DNA from: Ferruginibacter sp.
GTDB lineage: Bacteria; Bacteroidota; Bacteroidia; Chitinophagales; Chitinophagaceae
Length of the DNA: 64,000 nucleotides
Reading direction: 5' to 3'
NCBI GenBank assembly: GCA_017983695.1
Contig: JAGOAX010000010.1
Location: 64,716-128,715 of the forward strand
This document shows positions 145 through 25,050 of the stretch, piece by piece. Position 1 is the stretch's first letter. The number at the start of each line of letters is the position of its first letter. The notes under the pieces are model-generated. The model was not told the DNA's origin and ran no database searches. It saw only the letters and a program-made list of their open reading frames with translations. The translations under genes and the position numbers were made by a program.

Positions 145-813
145 ATGATAAAAATGGTTGTATTTGATATGGCCGGCACCACTGTGCATGAAAACAACGT
201 GGTGTACAAAACTTTGCAAAAAGTCATTAACGAAGACGGGTATAATTTTTCATTAGCACAAGTACTTGCAGAAGGCGCTGGTAAAGAAAAACTGCAAGCG
301 ATAAAAGATATTATTGCAATGCAAAACATTGCACCGGATGATGCTATTGCAAATAAAATATACGGCTTATTTGTGGATGAACTGGCCACAGCATATGATA
401 GTTTTGAATTAAAACCACAACCTGGTGCCGAAGAAACTTTTCAATCTTTAAGGGATAGAAATATTTTGGCAGTATTAAATACCGGTTATAATGAAAAGAC
501 CGCCGTAAACATTTTAGAAAAATTACGTTGGGAAACCGGGAAGCAAATTGACGGGTTGATTACGGCAAGTGATGTACAAAATAACCGTCCTAACCCTGAT
601 ATGATTATGCTGGCTATGCAGAGGTTTGGGATTGAAAATGCAAGCGAAGTGGTTAAAGTGGGAGATTCTATCATTGATATTGAAGAAGGTAAAAATGCAG
701 GCTGTAGCCTTAGCATTGGCATTACCACCGGCGCACATACTTACGAACAACTGGTATCAGCCAATCCTGATCATATCATTCATCATTTACAAGAATTGTT
801 GCCATTAATTTAA
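145..813 (+). CDS. Phosphonatase-like HAD hydrolase (PhnX-like)
   Basis: FDMAGT motif I as in phosphonatases, cap AGKEK with Lys at the Schiff-base position, RPNPDM, KVGDSIIDIEEG, GITTG. Confidence 0.85.
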   Translation: MIKMVVFDMAGTTVHENNVVYKTLQKVINEDGYNFSLAQVLAEGAGKEKLQAIKDIIAMQNIAPDDAIANKIYGLFVDELATAYDSFELKPQPGAEETFQSLRDRNILAVLNTGYNEKTAVNILEKLRWETGKQIDGLITASDVQNNRPNPDMIMLAMQRFGIENASEVVKVGDSIIDIEEGKNAGCSLSIGITTGAHTYEQLVSANPDHIIHHLQELLPLI

Positions 814-819
814 TGGATC

Positions 820-2133
820 ATGCCAGCCACCATTTCATTAACAGAAAACAATACCAGCCGTGTAAAGCTAAGCAGGCAACCGTTGCTGCTGGTTATTTAT
901 ATTTCTTTATGTGCCTTTGTAATTTACAGTTGCATGTATGGTTTTAGAAAACCTTATACTGCTGCTACATACAATAACATTTTCTTTTTAGGCATTTCTT
1001 ATAAAGTATGTTTGGTAATTGCACAGGTGTTGGGTTATATGTGCAGCAAGTTTTATGGCATCAAATTTATTTCGGGTATGAAGCCAGAGCTCCGCTCTGT
1101 TTACATTGTTTTATTTATAGGTATTGCATGGGCATCGTTATTGCTGTTTGCAATAATTCCGCCGCCATACAATATCATCTGTATGTTTATTAATGGCCTT
1201 CCGCTGGGTATGGTATTTGGTTTGGTATTTGGTTTTTTAGAAGGCAGGAGAACAACAGAATTGATGGGAGCCATTTTAGCTACCAGTTTTATTTTTGCAT
1301 CGGGCCTGGCCAAAACCATTGGCAAATGGTTGATACTTGATTTTAATTTCAGTGATTGGTGGATGCCTTTTACTGCCGGTGCTTTTTTTGTAATCCCCCT
1401 TTGTATTTGTGTAAAGCTATTGCACCAGGCACCGCCGCCCAGTGCAGACGATATTGCACACCGCACCATTCGTAAACCAATGACTGCTGCAGAAAGAAAA
1501 CAATTTATAAAGCAGTTTGGTTTTGCCATTACACCAATCATATTGGCGTATGCAGTATTTACTATCGTAAGGGATTTTGTAGAAGACTTTGCCAACGAGT
1601 TGTGGACAGAAACAGGCTTTCAAAATAATGCAGGTGTATTTGCACAAACAAGTACAACTATTGCATTAATTACACTGGCCATTATTGCCGGTTTCTTTTT
1701 AATAAAAAGTAATTACAAAGCATTCAGGTTAAGTCATTTTTTAATAATGGCCGGAGTATTGTTATCTGCCATATCCACTTTTTGTTTTAGCGCTCATTTT
1801 ATTACACCGTTTACCTGGATGTTGTTTAGCACCACAGGCCTGTACCTGGCATACCTCCCCTTTAATTGTATTTACTTTGAGCGCATGTTAGCCACTTACA
1901 AAATAAATGGCAATATTGGTTTTGTAATGTACATAGCCGATGCATTTGGGTATTTGGGTACTGTAGCTGTTTTGCTGATAAAAGAATTTATACCGATTAA
2001 ATACAGCTGGATAAATTTTTTCAGTTTTCTTTTTTATGCAGCGGCAGCTTTAGGTGTGCTGCTTATCATTATCAGTTTAAGTACACACAGTAAATTATAT
2101 AAAAATTTATGCAACAAAAATCAGCCATCGTAA
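820..2133 (+). CDS. DUF5690 family MFS-like membrane transporter
   Basis: About 12 hydrophobic segments; YSCMYGFRKPY, LEGRRTTE, FASGLAK, RDFVEDF, YIADAFGYLG motifs. Confidence 0.8.
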   Translation: MPATISLTENNTSRVKLSRQPLLLVIYISLCAFVIYSCMYGFRKPYTAATYNNIFFLGISYKVCLVIAQVLGYMCSKFYGIKFISGMKPELRSVYIVLFIGIAWASLLLFAIIPPPYNIICMFINGLPLGMVFGLVFGFLEGRRTTELMGAILATSFIFASGLAKTIGKWLILDFNFSDWWMPFTAGAFFVIPLCICVKLLHQAPPPSADDIAHRTIRKPMTAAERKQFIKQFGFAITPIILAYAVFTIVRDFVEDFANELWTETGFQNNAGVFAQTSTTIALITLAIIAGFFLIKSNYKAFRLSHFLIMAGVLLSAISTFCFSAHFITPFTWMLFSTTGLYLAYLPFNCIYFERMLATYKINGNIGFVMYIADAFGYLGTVAVLLIKEFIPIKYSWINFFSFLFYAAAALGVLLIIISLSTHSKLYKNLCNKNQPS

Positions 2134-3251
2134 TTGGTGCCGGCATTGTTGGCCTTGCCAGTGCAAGAGCTCTTGCACAAAAGGGTTTTAGTGTAAAAGT
2201 ATTCGACCGCCATCCGCAGGCGATGGGTGCATCGATACGGAATTTTGGAATGGTATGGCCCATTGGCCAGCCATCCGGCACTATGTACAACCGTGCCATG
2301 CGCAGCAGAACAATCTGGAAGACCATTGCTAAGGAAGCCAACATCTGGCACGAAGAAACCGGCAGTCTTCACTTAGCATACAATGCAACAGAGTGGCAGG
2401 TATTACAAGAGCTGGAAAATATTTTTAAACAGGAAAAAAGAAATGTTACGCTTTTAGATAAAAATAAAATTGTAACCCTGTATGAACATGTTAACGCTGA
2501 TAATTTAATCGGCGGGTTATACAGTGCTGATGAAATGCTCATAGACCCCAGAGAAGCCATTGCAGCATTGCCTGAATACCTGGAAGAAAAATATGCTGTA
2601 GAATTTTACTGGAACAATTGTGCAAGTTATATTGCTGACCAAACAGTGTATGTTGGTAAAGAAGAATATGAAGCTGATATAATTTTTGTGTGTAGTGGTG
2701 CCGATTTTGAAACACTTTATCCTGAAGAATTTTCAAAACTACCCATAACAAAATGCAAATTACAAATGCTGCGTACCGTTCCCATGCCGGAACGCTATCG
2801 TATTAAAACTGCAATTTGCGGCGGCTTATCTTTATTGCATTACAGCAGTTTTAAAGCTGCGCCTTCGCTACCGATACTGCAAAAAAAGATGGCGGAAGAA
2901 ATGAAGCCGTATCTGGATTTGGGCATACATGTAATGGCTGCACAAAATGGCAAAGGAGAAATTACCATTGGCGATTCGCATGAATACGGATTGTACCTTG
3001 ACCCTTTTGACAGGGCATCCACCAATAAGCTAATTCTGGAGTATTTAAAAAGTTTTTTAAATATCAACAATAATTCCATTGCCGAGACCTGGAATGGTAT
3101 TTATCCCAAGCTAACCAACGGCGATACCGAAATTTTCTTTTCGCCTGACCATGGCGTATATATTTTGAATGGTGTTGGTGGTGCCGGCATGACCTTATCT
3201 TTTGGCCTTGCAGAAGAAGTGGTAGACCAGGTGGTGATGGTGACTGCGTAA
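2109..3251 (+). CDS. TIGR03364-type FAD-dependent oxidoreductase (DAO family, phosphonate-associated)
   Basis: GAGIVG Rossmann motif, GASIRNFGMVWP, GEITIGDSHEY, GVGGAGMTLSFGLAE. Confidence 0.85.
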   Translation: MQQKSAIVIGAGIVGLASARALAQKGFSVKVFDRHPQAMGASIRNFGMVWPIGQPSGTMYNRAMRSRTIWKTIAKEANIWHEETGSLHLAYNATEWQVLQELENIFKQEKRNVTLLDKNKIVTLYEHVNADNLIGGLYSADEMLIDPREAIAALPEYLEEKYAVEFYWNNCASYIADQTVYVGKEEYEADIIFVCSGADFETLYPEEFSKLPITKCKLQMLRTVPMPERYRIKTAICGGLSLLHYSSFKAAPSLPILQKKMAEEMKPYLDLGIHVMAAQNGKGEITIGDSHEYGLYLDPFDRASTNKLILEYLKSFLNINNNSIAETWNGIYPKLTNGDTEIFFSPDHGVYILNGVGGAGMTLSFGLAEEVVDQVVMVTA

Positions 3252-10790: not shown

Positions 10791-10871
10791 ACATTTAAAA
10801 TTTGACTAAAGTTAACCTGTTTTTTGGGTAACGCATATTAATTCCCCTGTTATTGCTCCAAAAAAACTATA

Positions 10872-10926
10872 GTAACATTGTCTTAATAGTGGGGTAATAA
10901 TTTAGTAAAACACCGCCGGTAATTTG
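10872..10926 (+). promoter_or_regulatory. Putative Pho-box array (4 x 11 bp) plus degenerate -7 element
   Basis: gtaaca 10872, ttaata 10883, gtaata 10894, gtaaaa 10905; TTTG at 10923 (18 nt offset). Confidence 0.7.
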
Positions 10927-10944
10927 CAGTATAAAAATCTGTTG

Positions 10945-11637
10945 ATGCAAACTAACCCATCTATGTTTCGCCAAAATAAAATATACTTTACCGGCCTTAT
11001 AGCAGTATTATTATTCAGTACCCTGTTTTTATTGATCAATGGTAAAGCTGCAGCTTTTATTTCGCTTAACAGCTACCACCCTTTTTTATTGAACGTTTTT
11101 TTTATCAATTATACTTTTATGGGTGATGGCATTTTTGCATTGTGCCTAACTGCCGCAGTACTTTTTTATTTTAAAAGAAAACAAGAGGGTTTAGCATTAT
11201 TGTATTCATTTTTAATCTCCGGCATTGCTGTACAAATAATAAAAAACCTGGTAAACAGCCCAAGGCCAAAATTATTTTTTGAGGCTGGTCAATATTTACA
11301 TTTTATTGATGGGGTAAGCCTTGCAAATAATTCCAGCTTCCCGTCGGGCCATACAGCTACAGCATTTGCAATTGCCACAGTAATGGTGGTAATGATGAAA
11401 AATAAAAGCTGGCAGTTGTTTATTTTGATTGCAACAGTACTGGTAGGCTATTCCAGGATCTATTTAGCGCAACATTTTTTACTGGATATAATAATTGGTG
11501 CAATAATCGGTAGTGCATCTGGTGTATTATCGGTTTACTTAGCCAAAAATATAAAAGGCATTAAACGATCCATTAAAAAAATGCATCGTTTGTCTCCCGA
11601 TACGGCACCATTACCATCTGCCATACAGCCCGTATGA
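10945..11637 (+). CDS. PAP2-family membrane phosphatase
   Basis: C1 KNLVNSPRP, C2 SFPSGH, C3 SRIYLAQHFLLD; track start 10924 lies inside the -7 element so ATG 10945 (or 10963) is preferred. Confidence 0.9.
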   Translation: MQTNPSMFRQNKIYFTGLIAVLLFSTLFLLINGKAAAFISLNSYHPFLLNVFFINYTFMGDGIFALCLTAAVLFYFKRKQEGLALLYSFLISGIAVQIIKNLVNSPRPKLFFEAGQYLHFIDGVSLANNSSFPSGHTATAFAIATVMVVMMKNKSWQLFILIATVLVGYSRIYLAQHFLLDIIIGAIIGSASGVLSVYLAKNIKGIKRSIKKMHRLSPDTAPLPSAIQPV

Positions 11638-12017
11638 ATACAATGATTGATACCCGGTTTTTAAAGTTTGGAATAGTAGGATTAAGTGGCATGGCAATAG
11701 ATTTTTCTGTTACCTGGTTTTGTAAAGAGAAGTTACGCCTCAATAAATACATTGCTAATTCCACAGGATTTTGCTGCGCTGTTATTAATAATTTTATACT
11801 AAACCGCTACTGGACGTTTGGCAGCAACGGACATCCATTTGCCGGACAGTTTGCAAAATTTATTTTGGTTTCTCTGACAGGACTACTTATCAATAATTTA
11901 TTACTTTATTGCTGCTCAAAATATATCAAAACCAATTTTTACCTCATAAAACTTATTGTAACCGGCCTTGTTTTTTTCTGGAACTACTTTATAAATTTTC
12001 TTTTTACGTTTAATTAG
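11634..12017 (+). CDS. GtrA family lipid-linked sugar flippase
   Basis: 127 aa, 4 TM, KFGIVG...NFILNRYWTF; ATGA overlap with upstream gene. Confidence 0.9.
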   Translation: MNTMIDTRFLKFGIVGLSGMAIDFSVTWFCKEKLRLNKYIANSTGFCCAVINNFILNRYWTFGSNGHPFAGQFAKFILVSLTGLLINNLLLYCCSKYIKTNFYLIKLIVTGLVFFWNYFINFLFTFN

Positions 12018-12024
12018 CTGCAAT

Positions 12025-13572
12025 TTGAATTATAAAAAGAAAACCTTACTGCTTATTGGCTTTGCTACTTTATTGCGCTGGATTACCGCAGGTTGTATTG
12101 AGTTGGGTAACGACGAAGTGTATTACCGTATGTATGCACAGCACCTGCAATGGAATTATTTTGACCACCCGCCAATGGTAGGCTGGCTTATCAGGTTTAC
12201 AACTGCCAATCTTTTTTTTGATAATGAAATATTCATAAGGCTTGCTGCAATTATTGCTGCAGCCTTAACCAGTTGGATTTTCTTCCTCTCCGGTAAAAAA
12301 TTAGGTAATGACTACACCGGTTTTTTGGCTGTGGCAATTTATACGGCTACTATTTACGGAAGTATAATTGCCGGTACCTTTATTTTACCTGATTCGCCAC
12401 AAATGGTTTGCTGGGCCGCAGGTTTATATTTATTAATTGATATTGCAAAGCACTCTGATATCACCCGTATTAAAAAAAAGAAAGTAGTATGGTTTGGCGC
12501 AATAATGGGTTTAGGGATGCTTTGCAAAATTCATACTTCGTTTTTATGGCTCGGGTTTTTATTGTATATCCTTTTGTACAACAGGCAATGGTTAAGGCAA
12601 CCTGTATTATATCTCTCCGGCATAATTACCTTACTATTTTTTTACCCGGTTATACAATGGAATATCGATAACCATTTTGTTACTTATCTCTACCACAGCA
12701 ACAGGGTAAACATTAGCAAAGCCGGAATTGATTTCACGTCGTTTTTAACTTTTGCAGCAGGGCAGCTATTTTACTACAACCCGGTTATTTTTATTTGTAT
12801 TATTATAGCAACTGTTGCCGCTATTAAAAATAAATTGCCTGTATTATCTTTCCAAAAAAGAATATTGCTGCTTTGTAGCTTACCATTAATAATTACTGCC
12901 ACTATTATTTCCTTATTTAAAAATGTATTGCCGCACTGGACCGGACCGGCATACAGCAGCCTTATATTATTAACGGCCTGCTATTTTGCAAAGCAAAAAA
13001 GTGATGAAAAAATAATGCCCCAGCCCATACTTTTTGCTAACGCTTTACTTATTGTAATAATTATCAGCGGCATTATGCTGGCAAATCTTTTACCCGGCAC
13101 ACTAGGCAAAAAAGATAAGCAATTGTATGGTGAGGGAGATTTTACTTTAGATATGTATGGATGGAAAAGTTTGAAATCCGATTTTTCAAAAATAGTTGAA
13201 GCTGATATAAAAAATGGACTGATGAAACCTGGAGCAGTTATCATCGGCAATAAATGGTTTCCGGCAGCACATACAGATTTTTATGTGGCCATGCCGCTAA
13301 AAAAAGATTTTATTGCTATTGGTGATACTAATGAAATACATCAGTACGCCTGGATAAACACACAAAGGAAAAAGCTGCAACCGGGTGATAATGCTTATTG
13401 TATAGTACCCTCTAATTACAATACCGATGTACAAGCCTTTTATGATGAAAATTTTACAACAATACTACCTCCTCAAGTAATTGAGCAAAAAAGAAATGGT
13501 ACTGTTTGCCGATATTTTTATATCTGGCGGCTACTGCATTTCAAACAAAATCAAAATCCCCTTTTAAAATAA
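12025..13572 (+). CDS. GT-C glycosyltransferase (ArnT/PMT-like, family 39/83)
   Basis: DEVYY and YFDHPPMVGW motifs, many TM segments, periplasmic C-terminal domain. Confidence 0.85.
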   Translation: MNYKKKTLLLIGFATLLRWITAGCIELGNDEVYYRMYAQHLQWNYFDHPPMVGWLIRFTTANLFFDNEIFIRLAAIIAAALTSWIFFLSGKKLGNDYTGFLAVAIYTATIYGSIIAGTFILPDSPQMVCWAAGLYLLIDIAKHSDITRIKKKKVVWFGAIMGLGMLCKIHTSFLWLGFLLYILLYNRQWLRQPVLYLSGIITLLFFYPVIQWNIDNHFVTYLYHSNRVNISKAGIDFTSFLTFAAGQLFYYNPVIFICIIIATVAAIKNKLPVLSFQKRILLLCSLPLIITATIISLFKNVLPHWTGPAYSSLILLTACYFAKQKSDEKIMPQPILFANALLIVIIISGIMLANLLPGTLGKKDKQLYGEGDFTLDMYGWKSLKSDFSKIVEADIKNGLMKPGAVIIGNKWFPAAHTDFYVAMPLKKDFIAIGDTNEIHQYAWINTQRKKLQPGDNAYCIVPSNYNTDVQAFYDENFTTILPPQVIEQKRNGTVCRYFYIWRLLHFKQNQNPLLK

Positions 13573-13581
13573 AAGGGGATT
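13555..13581. terminator. Hairpin terminator between convergent remodelling operons
   Basis: aatcccctttt-aaaat-aaaaggggatt perfect 11-bp stem overlapping the stop codon. Confidence 0.7.
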
Positions 13582-13706: not shown

Positions 13707-15071
13707 CTACGGTTGCAAAGAAACTACTCCTGTATTTGTTAAAAACCGGCCATACCAGTTGCCGGATTCTTTTACAATTCTTTGCTGCGTTTCAAAATCA
13801 ACATACACAAGCCCAAACCTCGGATGAAACCCTTCTGCCCATTCAAAATTATCCAGTAAGGTCCAAACAAAATAACCATTCACATTCACGCCTTCTTTTT
13901 TTGCCAGCAACACCTGCGCCACATGATCTTGCAAATAAGCCATCCGTTGCCGGTCGTTTACCTGGCCATTAACAGGTTCGTCTTTAAATGCTGCACCATT
14001 TTCTGTAACAATAATTTCTTTTATACCAACATACTGACCGATCCTTTTCAACGCTTCATAAATAGCAGGCGGATAAATTTCCCAGTTCATCAAAGTATGC
14101 TCCACATTCCGCTTGTTGGCCTTTATAATTTTAGCCCGTACAAAAGGCATAAAGGGTGCATAACTTACCAGTTCCCGGGTATAATTCTGCAAGCCAATAA
14201 AATCCATATCAAAAGCCAGTTTCCCCTCATCTCCCGGATACATAAACCGTTCTATCCTTTCTAATATTTTTAATTCTTTTGTGGGATAGCCCATGCCCAG
14301 CAATGGTTCAATAAACATACGGTTCAATAAAGCATCTACTTTTTTTGCTGCAGCAATATCCCGGTCGGTATAACTATAGGGTTCAATATGAGAATAAGAA
14401 ATGGTGGTGCCTACTTTACAATCGTTACGCAGGGTTTTTATTATGCGGCCACCTTCGGCCTGGCATAACGCAGCATGATGTGCTGCTGATAAAAAATTGG
14501 TCAAGCCTTTTTTACCCGGCGCATGTACACCTAAAAAATATCCGGCTCCGGTAAATACCATCGGTTCGTTTAATACCATCCAGTGCTTAACCCTGTCGCC
14601 AAATTGCTTAATGCAGCAATCAGTAAAATATCCAAACCAGTGTATCACTTCTCTGTTTGTCCAGCCGCCTTTCTGTTGCAATGCTTCCGGTAAATCCCAA
14701 TGGTATAAAGTAATCCATGGTTCAATACCAAGTTCAAGGCAAAAATCAATAATGCGGTTATAAAAATCTATGCCCTTATGATTGATGGGACCAATACCCT
14801 GCGGCAAAATCCGGCTCCAGGAAATGGAGAACCTGTAATTGGGAATATTGAGTTCATACATCAGGGCAATATCTTCTGCATAGCGGTTGTAAAAATCGCA
14901 GGCTATATTGCCGTTGTGGTTATCAATTATTTTTTTCTTTTTCTGGGCAAAAGTATCCCATATAGAAAGCCCCTTGCCATCTGCAATATGTGCGCCTTCT
15001 ATCTGGTAAGCTGCTGTAGAAACCCCCCATTTAAAATCTGCTCCAAAATCTTCCTTTGTAAATAACATCAT
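13707..15071 (-). CDS. GH1 beta-glucosidase, cytoplasmic
   Basis: AYQIEG, YRFSISWSRI, TLYHWDLP, NEP acid/base, TENG nucleophile, DNFEW; no signal peptide. Confidence 0.95.
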   Translation of the reverse strand: MMLFTKEDFGADFKWGVSTAAYQIEGAHIADGKGLSIWDTFAQKKKKIIDNHNGNIACDFYNRYAEDIALMYELNIPNYRFSISWSRILPQGIGPINHKGIDFYNRIIDFCLELGIEPWITLYHWDLPEALQQKGGWTNREVIHWFGYFTDCCIKQFGDRVKHWMVLNEPMVFTGAGYFLGVHAPGKKGLTNFLSAAHHAALCQAEGGRIIKTLRNDCKVGTTISYSHIEPYSYTDRDIAAAKKVDALLNRMFIEPLLGMGYPTKELKILERIERFMYPGDEGKLAFDMDFIGLQNYTRELVSYAPFMPFVRAKIIKANKRNVEHTLMNWEIYPPAIYEALKRIGQYVGIKEIIVTENGAAFKDEPVNGQVNDRQRMAYLQDHVAQVLLAKKEGVNVNGYFVWTLLDNFEWAEGFHPRFGLVYVDFETQQRIVKESGNWYGRFLTNTGVVSLQP

Positions 15072-16160
15072 TTAGCCCCCTATTTGATTTAATATTTTTC
15101 CGAGGCTGATGTCTTTTAATTTTTTGGCTGAATAGGCCGTTTCTCCCAACGCAGCAGCAGCAGGAGGTTTAACTGTGCCGTGTTTCTTTATAATGCCATT
15201 GATGATTTTTTCTGTAATGTTGGGATAATTAACAGAGAGGATCAATTTGGATGTTGTCCAGGCCTGTATTTTTTCGAGGTGTTTTTCTTTTAAACTTTTT
15301 ATTACCGGCACACCCATGGTTTTTAAAGCAGCAGCATTACATTGCTGTTCGTATTGTCCCTTCATAGGAATTACCATCAGTTTCTTTTTTAAAAACAAAG
15401 CCTCTGCCGGTGTTTCAAATCCTGCTCCGCAAAGTATGCCGGTACAGTTGATCATGCTGTCAATGAAAGCATCATTACTAATGGGGCGTATGTGTACGTT
15501 TTTTTCTGTGTACTCTTTTTTAGAATGCTTGCTGAACACCTGCCAGTTAATATTTTTTACCTGGCTCAATATTTTAACAATACGTTTATCATCATAAGCA
15601 GGAAGGTAAACTGTATAATGGCCTTTATTTTCTGCAACAGCTTTGCGTACCTGGCTTCTTATTACCGGAGTAGAAATATTTTTATCGTAAGCGCCAAAAT
15701 GAAAACCGTAGGCTTCGGTAACCGGTGCATAATTATGTAAGATGGCTTTACCTACAGGATCTTTCTTTTCGGGCTTAGGAGATTTTTTATTGATAACTGC
15801 GGCCTGGTGGCTTAAACCAATACATGTTTTATGTTTCATTTTACAGGCCCAGGCGCTTACGGGTTCAAAATCGTTTATTACAAGATCGTACTGCTCTACT
15901 GGCAAACTCTTAATTTCTTTATACAGTTTTTTTAAATTGCTCTTCCGGTAAGTTGCTAATAGATCAATGCCCCCCTTCTTACCAAAAATAAAACTCAACC
16001 CTTTAAATTTATATTTTACCGGATAAGGCAATTCCACATCGGCTTGTATGCCACTTACCAAAATATCCAGCTCCCCCTTTTGCTGCAATATGGGAATAAT
16101 ATCTCTTGCCCTGCTTAAGTGGCCGTTACCTGTGCCTTGTATGGCATATAATATTTTCAT
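15072..16160 (-). CDS. MJ1255/VC2487-family GT-B glycosyltransferase
   Basis: MKILYAIQGTGNGHLSRA, DFEPVSAW, AGFETPAEAL, GQYEQQCNA. Confidence 0.88.
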   Translation of the reverse strand: MKILYAIQGTGNGHLSRARDIIPILQQKGELDILVSGIQADVELPYPVKYKFKGLSFIFGKKGGIDLLATYRKSNLKKLYKEIKSLPVEQYDLVINDFEPVSAWACKMKHKTCIGLSHQAAVINKKSPKPEKKDPVGKAILHNYAPVTEAYGFHFGAYDKNISTPVIRSQVRKAVAENKGHYTVYLPAYDDKRIVKILSQVKNINWQVFSKHSKKEYTEKNVHIRPISNDAFIDSMINCTGILCGAGFETPAEALFLKKKLMVIPMKGQYEQQCNAAALKTMGVPVIKSLKEKHLEKIQAWTTSKLILSVNYPNITEKIINGIIKKHGTVKPPAAAALGETAYSAKKLKDISLGKILNQIGG

Positions 16161-17017
16161 CAGTTGCGCATTAAATTAAATTCCTCCACCATGTTATCAA
16201 ATAAGGTACTGTTATCCAATTCTTCCTCTTCAATTACAGACGCTTTCATTTTCAGCATTTCCTGTTCATCAAATTTATATATCTGCCATTCATTGTTTAC
16301 GTATTCCAAAGCTGTTAAATTTTCTATCCAGTCGCCACTGTTTAAATATAAAATTTTTCCATGCCCGTTTACAATTTCTCTCATCTCCGGCTGATGAATA
16401 TGTCCGCACACCACATAATCGTAATTATTGCTTATGCCTATCGCTGCTGCAGTATCTTCAAAATTGTTAATAAATTTTACTGCACTCTTTACACTATTCT
16501 TTATTTTTTTTGAGAGGGAAAGTTTTCCCCTGCCAAATATTTTTTCTGAAATAAAATTTGCCACCCGGTTAATTAAAATCAGGGTATCATACCCAACAGC
16601 TCCCAATTTAGCCAGCCATTTACTATGTTGCATGGTTACATCAAATACGTCACCATGAAAAAACCAGGCTTTTTTTCCATCATCCAAATCAAGCACCACC
16701 TTGTTTACAATTCGTAACGATCCCATTTTAAACCCTGCAAACTTCCGCAGCATTTCATCGTGGTTGCCGGTAACATAATACAGTTTTACCCCTTTGCTCA
16801 TCCAGCCCATAATATGCTTCACCACTTTCATGTGGCTTTTAGGCCAGTACCGTTTGCTGAACTGCCAAATATCAACAATATCACCATTTAAGACTACAAT
16901 TTTTGGTTTGATAGTTATAAGATAGTGTAATAGCTCTTTGGCATGGCAACCATAAGTACCAAGGTGAACATCGGAGAGCACCAGAATATCCAGTTTTCTT
17001 TTTTTAGTTGCCGCCAT
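16160..17017 (-). CDS. PlcP/LpxH-like metallophosphoesterase (likely phospholipase C by context)
   Basis: SDVHLG, GDIVDIW, GNHD, HGDVFD, GHIH, NSGDW; coupled to a glycosyltransferase. Confidence 0.85.
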   Translation of the reverse strand: MAATKKRKLDILVLSDVHLGTYGCHAKELLHYLITIKPKIVVLNGDIVDIWQFSKRYWPKSHMKVVKHIMGWMSKGVKLYYVTGNHDEMLRKFAGFKMGSLRIVNKVVLDLDDGKKAWFFHGDVFDVTMQHSKWLAKLGAVGYDTLILINRVANFISEKIFGRGKLSLSKKIKNSVKSAVKFINNFEDTAAAIGISNNYDYVVCGHIHQPEMREIVNGHGKILYLNSGDWIENLTALEYVNNEWQIYKFDEQEMLKMKASVIEEEELDNSTLFDNMVEEFNLMRN

Positions 17018-17118
17018 TAACCAATTTTCAAAAACTTAAATGGCGAGCTAAGGAAAGCAATACGAAATAGAAACAGCCGCACAATAAAACTCAGCAAAAA
17101 GAATTGAAGATTTTTCAT
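17017..17118 (-). CDS. Candidate 33-aa hydrophobic small protein coupled to the plcP-like gene (not in ORF track)
   Basis: MKNLQFFLLSFIVRLFLFRIAFLSSPFKFLKIG*; stop overlaps next ATG (TAATG); A-rich leader taatttcaaaATG. Confidence 0.4.
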   Translation of the reverse strand: MKNLQFFLLSFIVRLFLFRIAFLSSPFKFLKIG

Positions 17119-17176
17119 TTTGAAATTATTGGGTTAGTAAAAAATTATCAAATAAAAAATAAAGGAACACAAACTG

Positions 17177-17215
17177 TCTTACCTGAATGTTACGCTAACA
17201 TTAAGTAAGTGTTAA
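17177..17215 (-). promoter_or_regulatory. Putative Pho-box array facing the plcP-like operon
   Basis: Reverse units ttaaca (17210), ttaatg (17199), gtaaca (17188), gtaaga (17177), 11-bp period. Confidence 0.65.
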
Positions 17216-17238: not shown

Positions 17239-17294
17239 TTAATGATTTCGCAATACTGGCTTAACACAGGCTTAATAATGCAAAGGCAATTTTG
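17239..17294 (+). promoter_or_regulatory. Putative Pho-box array plus degenerate -7 element facing the choice-of-anchor I gene
   Basis: ttaatg 17239, gcaata 17250, ttaaca 17261, ttaata 17272; TTTG at 17291 (19 nt offset). Confidence 0.65.
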
Positions 17295-17374
17295 CTCCTT
17301 GATTCTATTAGCAGCAATTGTGGATTTTAAAGTATTGCCACAGTATGTATCATCATTACAGAAATATTAAACAC

Positions 17375-18883
17375 ATGAAAAAAGCAGCAACAGCATTATT
17401 ATTGGTAACCTTATTTATGGCATGTAAAAAATCGGATGATGCCCCTGCAGAAGTAATTGTTAATGAAGACCCGGCAACTTATAAAGAAATTGCCTCCCTT
17501 AACCTGGGTGGTTTAGGCTCCGCAGAGATCACCACTTTTGATCCGCAAACCAAACGCCTTTTTGCTGTAAACAATGGAACACTAAATAAAATAGATGTCA
17601 TTGATATTGCCAATCCGGCTGTAATCAGTGTAATACATTCTATAAGTCTTGCTACTTATGGCGGCTATGTAAACAGTGTTGATGTTAGTAATGGAAAACT
17701 GGCCGCTGCCATTGAAGCTTCTAACAAACAAAACCCGGGAAAAGTAGTGGTATTTAATACATCTACTTATGCAGAAGAAAAAGTAATAACCGTTGGTGCA
17801 TTACCGGATATGGTAGTTTACAGCCCCGATGGTAAGTACATACTTACTGCTAATGAAGCAGAACCAGATGCAACCTATACCAACGATCCGGAAGGCAGTG
17901 TATCTATAATAAATGTGACTGACAATTACAGCGTAACTACGTTGAACTTTGCCTCTTTCGCATCTCAATTAACCGCTTTAACAACCAAAGGCTTTCGTGT
18001 GTTTGGTCCCGGAAAAGATATTATTAAAGATGTGGAGCCGGAGTACATTACTGTTTCTTCCGATTCTAAAACAGCATGGGTAACATTGCAAGAGAATAAT
18101 GCTATTGCTGTAATTGATCTTACCACAAAAGCAATTACCAAAATATTTCCATTAGGATTTAAAGATTATAATACTGCTGCCAACGCAATAGACCCTAGTG
18201 ATAAAGAAGGCGGCATAAACTTTACTCCTTGGAAAGCTTTTGGTACTTATATGCCTGATGCAATAACTTCTACCAATTATAATGGCACTACGTATTTATT
18301 TACAGCCAACGAAGGAGATGCAAGAGAATACACCGGCTTTAGCGAAATAAAAAGAATAAAGGATATTACATTAGATGCTACTGCTTTTCCTACTGCAGCT
18401 ACGCTTAAATTAGATGCACAACTAGGCAGATTGAATATTACGACCACTTTAGGCGATACTGATAATGATGGTGACTTTGATGCCTTATACAGTTTTGGTG
18501 CAAGATCATTTAGCGTGTGGAATGGCAGCACCGGCGAGTTAGTATTTGACAGCAAGAACGAACTTGATGTAAAAGCAAAAGAACTGGGTGTATATGATGA
18601 TAACCGCAGCGATGATAAAGGTGCTGAACCGGAAGCTATTACTTTAGGCAAAGTAGGTACAAAAACAATTGCTTTTGTAGGTATGGAAAGAGTAGATGCA
18701 GTGGTTGTGTATGATGTAACCAATCCAACAGCACCTGTATTTATAAAAATGTTTGCAACAGGTGATGCACCCGAAGGTGTGCTGTTTATTCCTTCATCTA
18801 AAAGCCCCATTGGCCAAAGCCTGGTAGTTGTAAGCAGCGAAAATGATGGTGTGATAAAAATATATAGGGCAGATAAATTATAA
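17375..18883 (+). CDS. Choice-of-anchor I family lipoprotein (alkaline-phosphatase-associated beta-propeller)
   Basis: Lipobox FMA-C at MKKAA start; VGALPDM, ANEAEP, EPEYI, ANEGD, GARSFS, RSDDKGAEPE motifs. Confidence 0.85.
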   Translation: MKKAATALLLVTLFMACKKSDDAPAEVIVNEDPATYKEIASLNLGGLGSAEITTFDPQTKRLFAVNNGTLNKIDVIDIANPAVISVIHSISLATYGGYVNSVDVSNGKLAAAIEASNKQNPGKVVVFNTSTYAEEKVITVGALPDMVVYSPDGKYILTANEAEPDATYTNDPEGSVSIINVTDNYSVTTLNFASFASQLTALTTKGFRVFGPGKDIIKDVEPEYITVSSDSKTAWVTLQENNAIAVIDLTTKAITKIFPLGFKDYNTAANAIDPSDKEGGINFTPWKAFGTYMPDAITSTNYNGTTYLFTANEGDAREYTGFSEIKRIKDITLDATAFPTAATLKLDAQLGRLNITTTLGDTDNDGDFDALYSFGARSFSVWNGSTGELVFDSKNELDVKAKELGVYDDNRSDDKGAEPEAITLGKVGTKTIAFVGMERVDAVVVYDVTNPTAPVFIKMFATGDAPEGVLFIPSSKSPIGQSLVVVSSENDGVIKIYRADKL

Positions 18884-18899
18884 ATGAGAGATATGTAGC

Positions 18900-19298
18900 A
18901 TCGCAAGGGTAGGTAGTGTGTCGCAGTTGGATTATTTTCTATCCAATGCTAATCAAACTTTAGTAACCTTATCTTCCGCATCAATTACACCAATGACCTG
19001 TGTAATTAAGCCCTATGCCAAAGTGGAATTTATTAAAGCCGAAGTAGAGTTTCTATCCAATAATCAAACTGCCGTAAAATATTATGCCTTATTCTTTGTA
19101 GATTACCAGGCATGGTTTGAATACAGGCGTACCGGAATGCCGGTATTACCAATTAATGCCGGTATGGTGGGTAAACAAATGCCTACCCGTTTTAAATACC
19201 CGATTGCAGTAAGAACTAATAACCCGGTAAATTATCAACTTGCCGTAACTTCAATGGGCGGCGACGATAACACTACCAAAGTGTGGTGGGAAAAATAA
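18900..19298 (+). pseudogene. C-terminal remnant of a SusD/RagB-like lipoprotein
   Basis: YAKVEFIKAE, YYALFFVDYQAWFEYRRTGMP, RFKYP, MGGDDNTTKVWWEK are SusD C-terminal motifs; no signal peptide, in-frame stop at 18885, no susC upstream. Confidence 0.8.
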
Positions 19299-20826: not shown

Positions 20827-20860
20827 AGCTTTACCTGTACAAGTTATAGGTAAAGCTTTT
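20827..20860. terminator. Bidirectional terminator
   Basis: agctttacctgta...tataggtaaagct stem between convergent genes. Confidence 0.75.
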
Positions 20861-21908
20861 AATCTTTCTTTTTAGGTAATGTAAAACCAAAGGTGGTACC
20901 TACATCAATTTTACTGCGTACATGAATGGTCTGACCATGGGCTTCCACAATATGTTTGCAAATAGAAAGACCTAAACCACTACCCCCAACTTTCCTGCTT
21001 CTTGCTAAATCGGTACGATAAAACCTTTCAAATATCCTGGGTAAATGTTCTTCTGCAATACCGGAGCCATCATCACTGATCTCTATTAATATTCTACGAC
21101 CATCTATCCGGTAAAAGCTACTTTCTATTGTGCCATTTTGCTTACCATACTTGATCGCATTGTCTACAAGATTTATAAAAACCTGCCGTATTTTTTCTTT
21201 ATCGGCATAAACAGTTAATGGTTGTTCGCAGCCTTTTTTAATAATGCATTTAATTTCTTTTTCTTCTGCTTTAATAGCTAAGGTTTCATACACTTCCTTC
21301 AGCAGGTCCTGTATCACAAAATTTTGCTGGTACAGCAATTGTTCGCCACTTTCTAATTTTGATATTTCATCAAGGTCATCTACTAAATTCACCAGTCGGT
21401 CAACATTACGGGAAGTGCTGTTTAAAAATTTTTTATTTACATCAGGATTTTCCAAAGCGCCATTTAATAAAGTATCTACATAACCCTGTATGGCAAAAAT
21501 CGGTGTCTTTAATTCATGACTCAGATTTTGCAAAAATTCTTTGCGGTAAGTTTCGTTTTGCTGCAGTAATTCTATTTCTTCTTTACGCTGTATGGCCCAT
21601 TTTTCCACGTCTTCCCTTACTTCATCAATGCCTTTCTGGGGTAAAATATTTTTATAGTAAAACTCTTCTCTTTTGCTGGCCTTGGTTTGATAAATGAGTT
21701 TGTAAATGAGTTTTATTTTGCGGTAAATAAAAGTTTGCAGTGCGTAAGATATTAATGCATAGCTGCCCAAAAACATGGCTACAAATGAAACCAACGGTAT
21801 CCACCAAACCGGTTTAAAAATAAAAACCACAATTGCCACCGGCACCGATAAACCCAATGCCGTTAATGCAGATAATTGTTGTGGTGAAAGATTTTTTTGT
21901 GAAGGCAT
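20859..21908 (-). CDS. phoR: Sensor histidine kinase, PhoR-like
   Basis: Two N-terminal TMs, SHELKTP H-box, NLVDNAIKYG, DDGSGI, GGSGLGL; located in a phosphorus cluster. Confidence 0.8.
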   Translation of the reverse strand: MPSQKNLSPQQLSALTALGLSVPVAIVVFIFKPVWWIPLVSFVAMFLGSYALISYALQTFIYRKIKLIYKLIYQTKASKREEFYYKNILPQKGIDEVREDVEKWAIQRKEEIELLQQNETYRKEFLQNLSHELKTPIFAIQGYVDTLLNGALENPDVNKKFLNSTSRNVDRLVNLVDDLDEISKLESGEQLLYQQNFVIQDLLKEVYETLAIKAEEKEIKCIIKKGCEQPLTVYADKEKIRQVFINLVDNAIKYGKQNGTIESSFYRIDGRRILIEISDDGSGIAEEHLPRIFERFYRTDLARSRKVGGSGLGLSICKHIVEAHGQTIHVRSKIDVGTTFGFTLPKKKD

Positions 21909-21987: not shown

Positions 21988-22662
21988 CTATATTTCAAAC
22001 TTATACCCTACGCCTTTTACAGTGCTGATGCAATCAAGGTCTAATTTTTGGCGAATTTTGCGGATGTGTACATCAATGGTACGGTCGCCAACTATAACTT
22101 CAGTGCCCCAAATAGTGTTCAATATTTCGTTGCGTAAAAAAACTTTGCCGGGTTTGCCAGCCAGTAAAGCCAGTAATTCAAATTCTTTTCTGGCCAGTAC
22201 AATATCGTTTCCTTTAAAATTGATCATATATTTCTCCCTGTCAATTTCAAGATCACCCACTTTTAACACTTTGGGTCCATCATTACTAAACCTTCTGAAC
22301 AAGGCATTTACCTTACTCACTAAAACTTTAGGGCTTATAGGTTTTGTCAGGTAATCATCGGCCCCACTTTCCAACCCTTTCACTTCGGTGCCTTCATCAC
22401 TCAATGCAGTTAAAAAAATAATAAGGGTATTTTTAAAAGCGGGCAGGCTGCGTAAAGTATTACAAACTTCCATCCCGGTTTTACCCGGCATCATAATATC
22501 CAGTATTATCAAATCCGGAAGGGTTCGTTTTGCTTTTTCGATGGCTTCGTTGCCGTTCTTTGCAGTAATCACTTCAAAACCTTCTCCCTGCAAATTGTAT
22601 TGGATGATCTCCAGGATATCGGGCTCATCATCGGCAATTAATATTTTTTTAACAGTACTCAT
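21988..22662 (-). CDS. phoP: OmpR-family response regulator, PhoP/PhoB-like
   Basis: DDEPDI, LDIMMP, GADDYLTKP, DRTIDVHIRKIR, VKGVGYKF; start moved to ATG 22662 because the -7 box overlaps 22680. Confidence 0.82.
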   Translation of the reverse strand: MSTVKKILIADDEPDILEIIQYNLQGEGFEVITAKNGNEAIEKAKRTLPDLIILDIMMPGKTGMEVCNTLRSLPAFKNTLIIFLTALSDEGTEVKGLESGADDYLTKPISPKVLVSKVNALFRRFSNDGPKVLKVGDLEIDREKYMINFKGNDIVLARKEFELLALLAGKPGKVFLRNEILNTIWGTEVIVGDRTIDVHIRKIRQKLDLDCISTVKGVGYKFEI

Positions 22663-22675
22663 AAGTAAAACGTTG

Positions 22676-22685
22676 TGCAAAAGTA
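22676..22685 (-). promoter_or_regulatory. Housekeeping -7 element of phoPR
   Basis: TACTTTTGCA on the minus strand, a perfect TAnnTTTG. Confidence 0.7.
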
Positions 22686-22821: not shown

Positions 22822-25050
22822 ATGACTATGACAAAGAATATTTTTTTAATCCTTTTACTACTTATTTGCCGGGTTACCAGCTTCGGAATACCTATCGATA
22901 CTATTAAAGTACCTTTTCAACGACAGATCTTTCATGATAAGATTAATGGAGAGCAAAAGCTACTGGATAAAGCCGATGGTAAAACTGACGGCATTATAAA
23001 AGTATCGTATGATAACGATATAAACCTGGCTGTTACCGATGCGATAATAAGGGGCATTAATGAACTGGAGGACTCCGTTGAAGTGAATAAAAAACTGGCA
23101 GGGCACCGGGAAAAAGTAATGTACCTAAATTATATTGAACGGGTGGTAAGGGAATTTAGAAACGGATGGAGGCAACAGCTGCTTGATCCATTATATGCCC
23201 CGATACTGATAGATAATTTTAAAAAGATTATGACTGCTGATATTGACAGCATGAGTATGGTGCCATTTATTGAGGCTGCCCCCTATGAAGTAGGCAGAAT
23301 TAATATGGAGATATTTTCGGCCAACAGCGGATATAAGCAAAGCAAAAACCTGGTGTATTTAAAATTTTGTACCCTCTATCCTGATAAAGTTTTATCAACT
23401 CTGGCACCATACGCTAAAGAAACATTTGCCGACAGCCTGGTTATCCTGGCCTGTAAAAATGATCCTTCGCAGGCCTATAAATTTGCACAGGATGTAGCAT
23501 CACCTGTTGGCAGGGTAATTCATAACAGTGCCGACCCCTTGGTAAAAACCATTGCCACACTGAGTAAGCTGCCGGGGGCTCTTTTATATTTCCCCTTTTT
23601 AGATGATATAGTAAGCGGTAAAAAACAAATTGATAGCCTGCATAAAATTATTGGCAGCGGCGAAAAAGGTTATGACAGTGTTGCGTATTATAAACTACTG
23701 GTGCAAACAGAAATTGAATACAGTAAAAGAATGAGCAGGGGCGATACCGCAACAGCATTATTTGGTGCCAACGGCCTTAGGGATTTACTTAAAAGAAAAG
23801 CACTGCAACATTTTATTACACCAATAAATGACCTGCACGAAAAACCCGAAGCTGTGCGGATGAAAGCAATAGACTCTTTAAGCCCTGCGGATATTTATTA
23901 CATGATTGTAACCAATGAAGATGTTATTTATACCAGCAGTTACAAGCATAGTTTTAACCGCATGTTGCAAAGGCTGGGCAAAACCCCTGCTACCGATTCT
24001 TTATTATTGGCCGTAAACTTCGATTACTTTAAAAAGTTTATTAAAATGGCAGCCAATTTTAATAAACTGGATACCTTTTTAAATTTAATGCCGCCATCAA
24101 GTTCCGAAACTTTAATGAAAGCTTTTGTAGGCAGACTGGAAACCAACAAAACCCTTGAAGATGCCGTTGATGTGGCAGATTCGTACAGCAGCATTAATAA
24201 CAAAAAACTGCTGGCCAATATTTTAAAATATGTAGATGATAATGAGCTACGCTGTGTAAAGAACAACAACAAACGTGGTAAGATAATTTACAGCCTTTTA
24301 AAAACAATTTTTCTTTCGGCCGATAGTACCAATAAAATTGATTTGAGTGCTGCGATAGGCATACCGCCGGTTTATACTATTGAAAACAAGGCGCTGATGG
24401 GAGATGGTGACAGCAACCGTATTGTGCAACAGGTTTTCTTTTATGGTGATGAGGATGGGCAAAAATTTTTTCCGCAATATGTCAATTCTTTTTCTGCTAA
24501 AGAATGGAAGGTCAACAGCAGCTTTAAAGAATGGGTGGAAATAAAATCGATAAAAGGCCCAAAGGTTTGGATATATGTAAACCGTCCTTTAAATAACGAC
24601 AGGAATTTAGATGACACCGCACAGATACACCTGAATCAATACCTTACAAAAAATAATCTTAAACCATCAATTGTAACACACCGTGGGCATAGTTACTGGC
24701 TGCCCCGTACCATCGAACGTATGACAGGCGATGCAAAAATTATTGTATTAGGTAGTTGTGGCGGTTACAAAAATTTAAACCAGTTAATTGAAATAAATCC
24801 TGATGCCCATATTATTTCCACCAAGCAAATTGGTACCGGCAACATTAACCAGATAATTACAAATAAATTAAACCAGGTATTGCTTGCCGGCAAAACAGTT
24901 GTATGGAAAACCATGTGGGATGATCTTTCTTTATTTTTTGCCAAACAACCAAAAGATATAAAAGAAGCCTGGGAAGATTATATACCACCGTATAAAAACC
25001 TGGGTGCTATTTTTATTAAAGCTTATAATAAAAAATCGGAGGGAGAATAA
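22822..25050 (+). CDS. Large exported hypothetical protein with possible C-terminal His-Cys dyad
   Basis: 742-aa ORF with signal peptide; THRGHS and VLGSCGG near C-terminus. Confidence 0.75.
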   Translation: MTMTKNIFLILLLLICRVTSFGIPIDTIKVPFQRQIFHDKINGEQKLLDKADGKTDGIIKVSYDNDINLAVTDAIIRGINELEDSVEVNKKLAGHREKVMYLNYIERVVREFRNGWRQQLLDPLYAPILIDNFKKIMTADIDSMSMVPFIEAAPYEVGRINMEIFSANSGYKQSKNLVYLKFCTLYPDKVLSTLAPYAKETFADSLVILACKNDPSQAYKFAQDVASPVGRVIHNSADPLVKTIATLSKLPGALLYFPFLDDIVSGKKQIDSLHKIIGSGEKGYDSVAYYKLLVQTEIEYSKRMSRGDTATALFGANGLRDLLKRKALQHFITPINDLHEKPEAVRMKAIDSLSPADIYYMIVTNEDVIYTSSYKHSFNRMLQRLGKTPATDSLLLAVNFDYFKKFIKMAANFNKLDTFLNLMPPSSSETLMKAFVGRLETNKTLEDAVDVADSYSSINNKKLLANILKYVDDNELRCVKNNNKRGKIIYSLLKTIFLSADSTNKIDLSAAIGIPPVYTIENKALMGDGDSNRIVQQVFFYGDEDGQKFFPQYVNSFSAKEWKVNSSFKEWVEIKSIKGPKVWIYVNRPLNNDRNLDDTAQIHLNQYLTKNNLKPSIVTHRGHSYWLPRTIERMTGDAKIIVLGSCGGYKNLNQLIEINPDAHIISTKQIGTGNINQIITNKLNQVLLAGKTVVWKTMWDDLSLFFAKQPKDIKEAWEDYIPPYKNLGAIFIKAYNKKSEGE

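Follow-up and report, generated by a model that had tools for sequence, protein, structure and literature searches.

The window analysed here is a stretch of 64,000 nucleotides (nt) from a Ferruginibacter sp. genome (Bacteroidota, Chitinophagaceae; GenBank assembly GCA_017983695.1, contig JAGOAX010000010.1, positions 64,716 to 128,715), and this report concerns a minus-strand operon within it that couples a PlcP-like metallophosphoesterase and a glycosyltransferase to a glycoside hydrolase of family 1 (GH1). Gene 1 encodes the plcP-like metallophosphoesterase (16160-17017, an open reading frame (ORF) of 285 amino acids (aa)), gene 2 a GT-B glycosyltransferase of family PF13528 (15072-16160, 362 aa), and gene 3 a cytoplasmic GH1 beta-glucosidase (13707-15071, 454 aa); together they are called the trio below. 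The junction of genes 1 and 2 reads AAC TGA TG AAA, in which one base is common to the TGA stop and the ATG start, and that of genes 2 and 3 reads GGC TAA ATG ATG, with the stop directly against the start. The ORF coordinates thus bear out the initial annotation of this DNA, which had described three tightly coupled genes, a 1-nt overlap being followed by an abutting stop and start. Its gene list lacked a fourth cistron, a small leader ORF of 33 codons (17017-17118, minus strand, MKNLQFFLLSFIVRLFLFRIAFLSSPFKFLKIG) whose TAA stop overlaps the plcP ATG (TAATG). Read directly, the N-termini of all three enzymes lack the look of a signal peptide. At the far end, a terminator-like bidirectional hairpin with a 12-bp stem (13555-13581, both strands) separates the trio from a PAP2-GtrA-PMT_2 operon, and the convergent arrangement of the two units, also described initially, is confirmed.

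Environmental metatranscriptome contigs of 90-100% identity span all three genes and both junctions, and the sequence recurs in wastewater and activated-sludge metagenomes. The closest relatives belong to Chitinophagaceae, around Ferruginibacter and Sediminibacterium. Rfam gave no match in the operon or its leader, and a scan for sigma-70 promoters was uninformative (16 hits versus 14.4 expected).

Putative phosphate-type control

Upstream of the operon lies a Pho-box-like array in which four [GT]TAA[CT]A hexamers recur every 11 bp (17177-17215, minus strand, TTAACACTTACTTAATGTTAGCGTAACATTCAGGTAAGA; score 22/24), which on the minus strand from 17215 to 17177 reads TTAACA-N5-TTAATG-N5-GTAACA-N5-GTAAGA. 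Directly 3' of it, the sequence contains a candidate Bacteroidota -7 promoter element with a TTTG core (17164-17176, minus strand, CAGTTTGTGTTCC), and other genes of the surrounding phosphorus island are also preceded by an array and then TTTG. The 4.48-Mb genome has 14 four-repeat arrays where a Markov null gives about 0; 8 of the 14 lie within one 32-kb stretch (C33:50267-81954), and a strict two-repeat pattern is found nine times in the window (1.8 expected), always between 3365 and 22744. Among relatives, a same-strand array with a score of at least 20 stands upstream of plcP in 39/78, compared with 0/78 for coding controls and 2/78 for the opposite strand. Arrays precede TonB receptors, phosphoesterases, the PAP2 operon, plcP and the regulator gene itself, and so have the Pho-box trait of 11-bp-phased direct repeats upstream of phosphorus-acquisition genes. 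The genome-wide excess and the conservation in relatives show that the Pho-like array reported ahead of the trio is real, and we read [GT]TAA[CT]A arrays as the local Pho box.

The candidate binder of these arrays is a PhoB-like response regulator of the OmpR family (21988-22680, minus strand), whose best NCBIfam models are PhoB (TIGR02154, 222 bits; NF053854, 202 bits). Its partner is a PhoR/PnpS-like histidine kinase (20859-21908, minus strand) with PnpS and PhoR as best models, both below cut-off.

Two other sequence patterns were tried and set aside: a 9-mer common to the upstream and downstream spacers of the operon (TTAAGCCAG) is unenriched (30 versus 23 expected, with one mismatch), as is a stricter TTAAS-N6-KTAAS pattern, to which the hexamer-array model was preferred. 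No pstB above cut-off was found in the genome for checking the array on a classic Pho gene. The best PstB in the whole genome, which is 99.6% complete, reaches 155 bits against the TIGR00972 cut-off of 343, so the classic high-affinity phosphate transporter pstSCAB may be absent.

The three enzymes

Gene 1 belongs to the Metallophos families PF00149 and PF12850, and its metal-ligand motifs are complete (SDVHLG, NGD, GNHD, HGD and GHIH, supplying D16/H18, D46, N85-H86, H121 and H206/H208). The only named sequence relatives of gene 1 are LpxH enzymes, and a lipid A-type PAP2/ArnT-like operon lies next door; both would fit an LpxH isozyme in a unit that modifies lipid A precursors and not phospholipids. 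The match to LpxH is, however, weak, at 44 and 33.5 bits on models with cut-offs of 134 and 190 (about a quarter of what is required) and at only E 1e-7 in a PDB sequence search. A search for a separate housekeeping lpxH found a better candidate on contig C34, a paralog 24% identical to gene 1 that scores 104.5 and 91 bits on the same two models, which removes the possibility that gene 1 is the sole LpxH of the genome. In addition, the PAP2 operon is not syntenic in most relatives, and homologues of gene 1 are phosphate-regulated and classed as PlcP. An isozyme of LpxH is hardly credible on these grounds, and gene 1, judged by sequence, is distinct from the housekeeping LpxH and probably a PlcP-type enzyme, in agreement with the initial annotation. 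Identity to gene 1 is 66-87% across Bacteroidota orders, 71% for the homologue of Robiginitalea and 56-71% for homologues of Flavobacterium and Robiginitalea taken together; those of Robiginitalea, Cytophaga and other Bacteroidetes were retrieved with the MED193 PlcP at E <1e-40 by Sebastian et al. (2016; PMC4796936).

Gene 2 encodes the only PF13528 (Glyco_trans_1_3) protein of the genome, with this family as its sole Pfam hit (121.4 bits, cut-off 25); on TIGR00661 (MJ1255/VC2487) it scores 165.4 bits, below the cut-off of 195.9. Literature searches on PF13528/MJ1255 function found nothing relevant, and a PDB sequence search found no relative, so a structure was modelled and used for a fold search. 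The AlphaFold model is confident and (57 homologues; predicted local distance difference test score 87.8, predicted template modelling score 0.85) has as its top 50 PDB fold neighbours only UDP (uridine diphosphate)-glycosyltransferases of glycosyltransferase family 1 (GT1) and MurG (GT28), which, with PF13528 as the only Pfam family, puts gene 2 outside GT4 (Agt) and GT21 (Pgt). Both GT1 and GT28 invert configuration, and a beta-linked product is therefore the expectation from the model, one that would suit a GH1.

The closest fold neighbours of gene 2 are UDP-glycosyltransferases of small molecules and natural products (YjiC, YojK, OleD and CalG), and pairs of transferase and GH1 are known without an adjacent plcP, as would be expected if the two were a glycosylation/deglycosylation pair for a non-lipid small molecule (compare OleD and macrolides) and PlcP an unrelated neighbour. 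This is very improbable: most genomes with PlcP have the PF13528 transferase beside it, control of the unit appears to be of the phosphate type, and no biosynthetic or efflux genes are nearby.

Gene 3 exceeds the cut-off of the GH1 model TIGR03356 (553.8 bits versus 478.5), every 6-phospho-glycosidase model staying below its own cut-off, and is the single GH1 of the genome. Its best single-domain PDB matches include Thermotoga BglA (about 421 bits over the full length); the top PDB hit, 8in1 (502 bits), was discarded as an artefact of a two-domain sea-hare enzyme. The catalytic residues are intact, with acid/base E169 in NEP and nucleophile E357 in TENG, and E410 of DNFEW is present. With no signal-peptide-like N-terminus, the enzyme is the cytoplasmic GH1 with intact NEP/ENG residues that had been described as the third gene.

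Distribution of the GH1

Comparison loci were gathered as the 80 most similar to the gene 1 PlcP (the trio set); since this set is biased by the gathering method, an even sample of 201 Bacteroidota genomes was used as well. A transferase and a long GH1 lie within the fetched flank in 63/80 of the PlcP-similar loci, and trio loci come from Chitinophagales, Bacteroidales, Lentimicrobiaceae, Cytophagales, Sphingobacteriales and Flavobacteriales. The even sample holds GH1 in 24 genomes, PlcP (E <1e-40) in 71 and PF13528 in 109, with the full trio in only three, namely the window's own genome, G016 and G154; G158 and G062 have the transferase and GH1 with a 1-nt gap and no plcP beside them. Across the phylum the PF13528 transferase adjoins PlcP in most PlcP-bearing genomes, and the GH1 is an accessory of a minority of PlcP systems.

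The locus of G158 (L088, 4987-7562) consists of small ORF, transferase and GH1; plcP is gone from it, and a PlcP of 48% identity is encoded 0.4 Mb away. A separate family of shortened GH1-like proteins of about 390-415 aa, matched by the GH1 model in two pieces (about 4-228 and 286-451), is found in G170 (L092; G170:C125, 285-1463), G110, G166, G078 and G150, and the deviant gene of G170 directly adjoins a PlcP-transferase pair, on which it is convergent.

All operon-linked GH1s form one clade on a long stem in a quick maximum-likelihood tree (Shimodaira-Hasegawa-like approximate likelihood ratio test, SH-aLRT, 99), with the other Bacteroidota GH1s outside; eight unlinked members, including Flavobacterium and a genome of the same genus as the window's, also fall within it. 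Genomes with a clade GH1 have PlcP in 12/13 cases versus 59/188 for the others (Fisher p = 1.8e-5), and where a genome has both a clade GH1 and a PF13528 transferase, the two abut in five of eight cases (chance about 2e-13), two of which have no PlcP alongside. The same adjacency is seen in more than 60 further species, and the link of the GH1 to the trio is non-random. Unlinked clade members, too, look phosphate-regulated: in G001 the GH1 has an array of score 22 and then a CTTTGCA element, and stand-alone clade GH1s of Flavobacterium, Mucilaginibacter, Pedobacter and Taibaiella have an array scoring at least 20 in 26/74 cases, versus 0/74 controls.

The small leader ORF

A profile was built from the peptides that lead plcP and from a peptide of 27-29 residues encoded about 120 nt upstream of stand-alone GH1s (MKFFNLNFLVSFKEWLFLRAMQSSFLH); the two sets align over a core R/K-x-[WF]-L-F-L-...-S-x-F-...-[IL]-H. 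The profile matches 35/80 trio loci, 75/80 stand-alone GH1 loci and 0/20 loci in which PlcP and transferase have no GH1 next to them, a group that includes the orphan plcP of Flavobacterium. When trio-set loci with enough flank were rescanned from stop to stop, the small ORF was present in 33/61 with GH1 and 0/6 without, and divergent versions ending in YYPxLKH occur in further trio loci. The spacing agrees with this pattern, the distance from array to plcP being 60-100 nt in PlcP-transferase operons without GH1 and 180-260 nt in those with the small ORF. G158 has kept the small ORF ahead of its transferase-GH1 pair, with a TAATGG remnant at the expected plcP start. From its presence in GH1 loci and its absence where PlcP and transferase lack an adjacent GH1, the small ORF is assigned functionally to the GH1 and not to PlcP or the transferase.

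The small ORF is unique in its own genome (E 3e-14; next best 0.28), and the idea of a general Pho leader was rejected because no second copy exists. It has no Pfam or Rfam match. Entropy by codon position ranks 3>1>2 in three length classes, which looks like the signature of a translated and selected peptide; the small ORF could encode either a regulatory leader, by which expression is tuned, or a small partner peptide.

A Flavobacterium johnsoniae beta-glucosidase and the timing of the GH1

Table S2 of Lidbury et al. (2021; PMC8115612) lists Fjoh_4857, a 'Beta-glucosidase' of 51.219 kDa, with 14, 11 and 13 peptides in the three low-phosphate samples and 0-1 in all samples from high phosphate, low iron, low nitrogen or rich medium; its label-free quantification intensity is about 28.5 versus about 22.8, and the row is flagged significant. 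In the F. johnsoniae group, clade GH1s measure 450 aa and 51.0-51.4 kDa and bear the name 'GH1 family beta-glucosidase', and Fjoh_4857 is probably their orthologue. Literature searches on Fjoh_4857 found nothing relevant, and this low-phosphate-specific 51-kDa beta-glucosidase passes unremarked in the published proteome tables. If the orthology holds, the clade GH1 is made specifically during starvation, which argues against a role confined to recovery.

The initial annotation had proposed a potentially reversible switch, in which the GH1 trims or reverses the addition of sugar. Taken as reversal, the GH1 would strip the sugar from the glycolipid once phosphate returns, so that the diacylglycerol can become phospholipid again. 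A beta-glycoside maker beside a beta-glycosidase fits this stereochemically, and the GH1 protein could outlast starvation. The GH1 is nonetheless transcribed together with the synthetic enzymes from one presumed starvation promoter and abuts the transferase translationally, the probable orthologue in F. johnsoniae appears under low phosphate only, and synthesis and hydrolysis running together at full rate would be futile. Reversal after re-feeding is therefore improbable, and the shared promoter and the low-phosphate-only orthologue favour a GH1 that acts during starvation.

Interpretation

We interpret the unit as a four-cistron phosphate-starvation operon for membrane lipid renovation, consisting of small ORF, plcP, glycosyltransferase and GH1, and give both this reading and the lipid mechanism that follows a probability of roughly 60%. 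When phosphate is scarce, a PhoB-type regulator would probably bind the 11-bp-phased hexamer array and switch the operon on. PlcP would work on the cytoplasmic membrane from its inner face and remove the phosphorylated head groups of phospholipids; to the diacylglycerol left behind, the presumably inverting GT1/GT28-like transferase would add the sugar of a UDP-sugar, giving a beta-linked glycosyl-diacylglycerol. The retaining GH1 would act on this beta-glycoside during starvation, by trimming extra sugars, by turning it over or by transglycosylating between lipids, and would thereby set the head-group composition without undoing the switch after re-feeding. Gene content and coupling, the array and its conservation, the linkage statistics, the fold class of the transferase and the environmental transcripts are results of this analysis, and low-phosphate induction of PlcP and of the 51-kDa beta-glucosidase that is probably the orthologue comes from published work on F. 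johnsoniae; we infer each enzymatic step and the GH1 substrate. Homology, genomic context and the literature make the PlcP and transferase steps distinctly probable; that the GH1 substrate is a lipid, for which stereochemical fit, fusion to the transferase and co-occurrence across genomes speak, has slightly less than an even chance.

A more specific version is offered tentatively: the small ORF and the clade GH1 may together be a so far unrecognised module of Bacteroidota, specific to phosphate starvation, for editing the head groups of beta-glycolipids at the cytoplasmic membrane, either by transglycosylation of the SFR2 kind or by trimming that sets the ratio of mono- to oligo-glycosyl lipids, with the conserved micropeptide recruiting or activating the GH1 on the membrane or serving as a regulatory leader. 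If this proves true, it would be the first demonstration that a bacterial GH1 acts on membrane lipids.

Several points weigh against the lipid renovation reading. The array hexamer differs from the E. coli-type Pho-box consensus CTGTCAT, and the PhoB scores of the regulator on TIGR02154 and NF053854 both lie below cut-off. The metatranscriptome contigs, at 90-100% identity, may contain DNA and come from close relatives. The activities of the Bacteroidota-branch enzymes and their lipid product are predictions, and what rises under low phosphate in the flavobacterium Dokdonia MED134 is aminolipids, not glycolipids (PMC4796936). The GH1 is an ordinary BglA-type enzyme in which, at a glance that was not detailed, no lipid-binding feature is evident, and it is equated with Fjoh_4857 by name and mass. 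Finally, an adjacent GH1 is present in only about 4/71 of the PlcP-bearing genomes of the even sample, and the GH1 is dispensable for the basic PlcP-transferase pathway, because most Bacteroidota that have the pathway are without any GH1.

In the main rival, the GH1 is a co-regulated passenger: a starvation-induced cytoplasmic beta-glucosidase for soluble beta-glucosides such as cellobiose and laminaribiose, with no action on lipids, whose possible role under phosphate scarcity is hydrolysis in place of phosphate-consuming phosphorolysis. A typical BglA-type protein above the TIGR03356 equivalog cut-off, soluble and without a membrane segment, is what this would predict; many clade members stand alone, away from PlcP and transferase with the array still present, and most PlcP-transferase operons lack a GH1. 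It accounts poorly for a GH1 repeatedly joined to the PF13528 transferase across gaps of just 1 nt, also at loci lacking plcP (L088, L089), for the strong co-occurrence with PlcP, and for a unit that contains neither sugar transporter nor kinase. Bacteroidota normally handle beta-glucosides with periplasmic GH3 enzymes, and a cytoplasmic GH1 that is the sole one of its genome is out of place in that scheme. We regard the passenger as doubtful and keep the lipid renovation operon as the preferred interpretation.

The replacement of phospholipids by sugar lipids is a major bacterial answer to phosphorus scarcity in oceans, soils and wastewater. Being apparently phosphate-regulated, tied to the distribution of PlcP and repeatedly fused to the presumed lipid glycosyltransferase, the clade GH1 is a concrete candidate for the missing step of control or turnover of the surrogate glycolipids. 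The [GT]TAA[CT]A array provides a working Pho-box model for Chitinophagaceae and related Bacteroidota.

The facing operon and the phosphorus island

The PAP2-GtrA-PMT_2 (ArnT-like) operon (10924-13572, plus strand) has its own array at 10861-10910, which with a score of 23 is the best of the genome; of five relatives with this operon, four have a conserved array. No more than about 14 nt separate the array from the TTG annotated as start (10924), so the real start may be further downstream. The initial annotation had joined the two facing units into a possible six-gene system for remodelling of inner and outer membrane; this is not supported, since the PAP2 operon is convergent with the trio in just 5/80 related loci. 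With a conserved array of its own, it is probably a co-regulated neighbour and a separate member of the Pho regulon. Its role is plausibly dephosphorylation and glycosylation of lipid A, or phosphate-regulated glycosylation linked to undecaprenyl phosphate.

The phosphorus island around both units contains phosphonate genes (PhnX-like, HpnW-like and DUF5690), TonB receptors with SusD-like partners, metallophosphoesterases, a choice-of-anchor-I protein and the PhoB/PhoR-like pair. The phosphonate genes lie at window positions 145-3251 on the plus strand (a PhnX-like hydrolase, TIGR03351, above cut-off; a DUF5690 membrane protein; and a TIGR03364 HpnW-like FAD (flavin adenine dinucleotide) oxidoreductase, above cut-off), in what looks like a cluster for utilisation of compounds of the 2-aminoethylphosphonate type. 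Upstream of the window, in C33:50267-56000, four-repeat arrays precede a 435-aa outer-membrane-type protein without Pfam match and a SusC/SusD-like pair; the island thus reaches beyond the window.

Divergent from the operon, a choice-of-anchor-I beta-propeller protein of 521 aa (17239-18883, plus strand) has its own four-repeat array at 17239-17277 and may be the counterpart of the strongly phosphate-induced 'hypothetical lipoprotein - putative phosphatase' class of F. johnsoniae (Fjoh_3414). Between this gene and a metallophosphoesterase gene sits a 126-aa ORF (18918-19298, plus strand) whose similarity to SusD-like proteins is confined to their C-terminal end (profile positions about 372-495); it has the look of a truncated remnant or of a gene with a misplaced start. 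Divergent from the PhoB-like regulator, a 742-aa ORF without Pfam or NCBIfam match (22822-25050, plus strand) is preceded by TTAAGCC repeats and a CTTTGCAGC element, and may encode an uncharacterised protein of the Pho regulon.

Comparison with known systems

Sebastian et al. (2016; PMC4796936) established PlcP as the driver of lipid renovation in Proteobacteria, and the same study reports that plcP of the flavobacterium Dokdonia is induced by phosphate starvation and that plcP stands beside an 'uncharacterised glycosyltransferase' in many Bacteroidetes (its Table S2). In F. johnsoniae, Fjoh_4577 (PlcP) and Fjoh_0541 (a MurG-like transferase, pf04101) are induced under low phosphate (Lidbury et al., 2021; PMC8115612). 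The pairing of PlcP and glycosyltransferase is therefore already catalogued, and the suggestion of an undescribed system narrows to the GH1 and the small ORF, which alone are new. The Bacteroidetes systems of both studies share with the window the PlcP branch and the adjacent transferase family; the words 'glucosidase' and 'hydrolase' occur nowhere in their relevant text. No mention of a GH1 or small ORF with PlcP and transferase was found in PMC4796936, PMC8115612 or the other literature searched, and searches on GH1 and phosphate-starvation glycolipids found nothing relevant. The core is a known kind of system, and the GH1 with the small ORF is its new part, a finding that is well supported.

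The PlcP-Agt and PlcP-BtaAB operons of Proteobacteria (Sinorhizobium meliloti SMc00171, Phaeobacter MED193_17359, SAR11 HTCC7211 PB7211_960 and Pseudomonas aeruginosa) are PhoB-controlled and led by an LpxH-like phospholipase C, and the gene that follows encodes the step from the released diacylglycerol to a phosphorus-free lipid (PMC4796936, PMC8528852); the same plan is proposed for the window's unit. Here, in contrast, the transferase is a GT1/GT28-like PF13528 enzyme, presumably inverting, and not a GT4 Agt or GT21 Pgt; the unit also has a GH1 and a leader small ORF, and the hexamer is [GT]TAA[CT]A and not CTGTCAT.

Among GH1 enzymes with lipid substrates, plant SFR2 is a galactolipid:galactolipid galactosyltransferase and human GBA3/KLrP a cytosolic glucosylceramidase, both acting from the cytosolic side on beta-glycolipids of the membrane; under stress, SFR2 uses transglycosylation to remodel head groups, and diacylglycerol is released. 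The likeness to the window's GH1 is at the level of the GH1 family, a lipid activity here being hypothetical, and SFR2 is membrane-anchored whereas the window's enzyme is soluble. Thermotoga maritima BglA and other bacterial GH1 beta-glucosidases have catalytic motifs identical to those of the window's GH1, but these BglA-type enzymes serve the catabolism of cellobiose and other beta-glucosides, whereas the clade described here is apparently phosphate-regulated and linked to lipid genes and to a leader small ORF.

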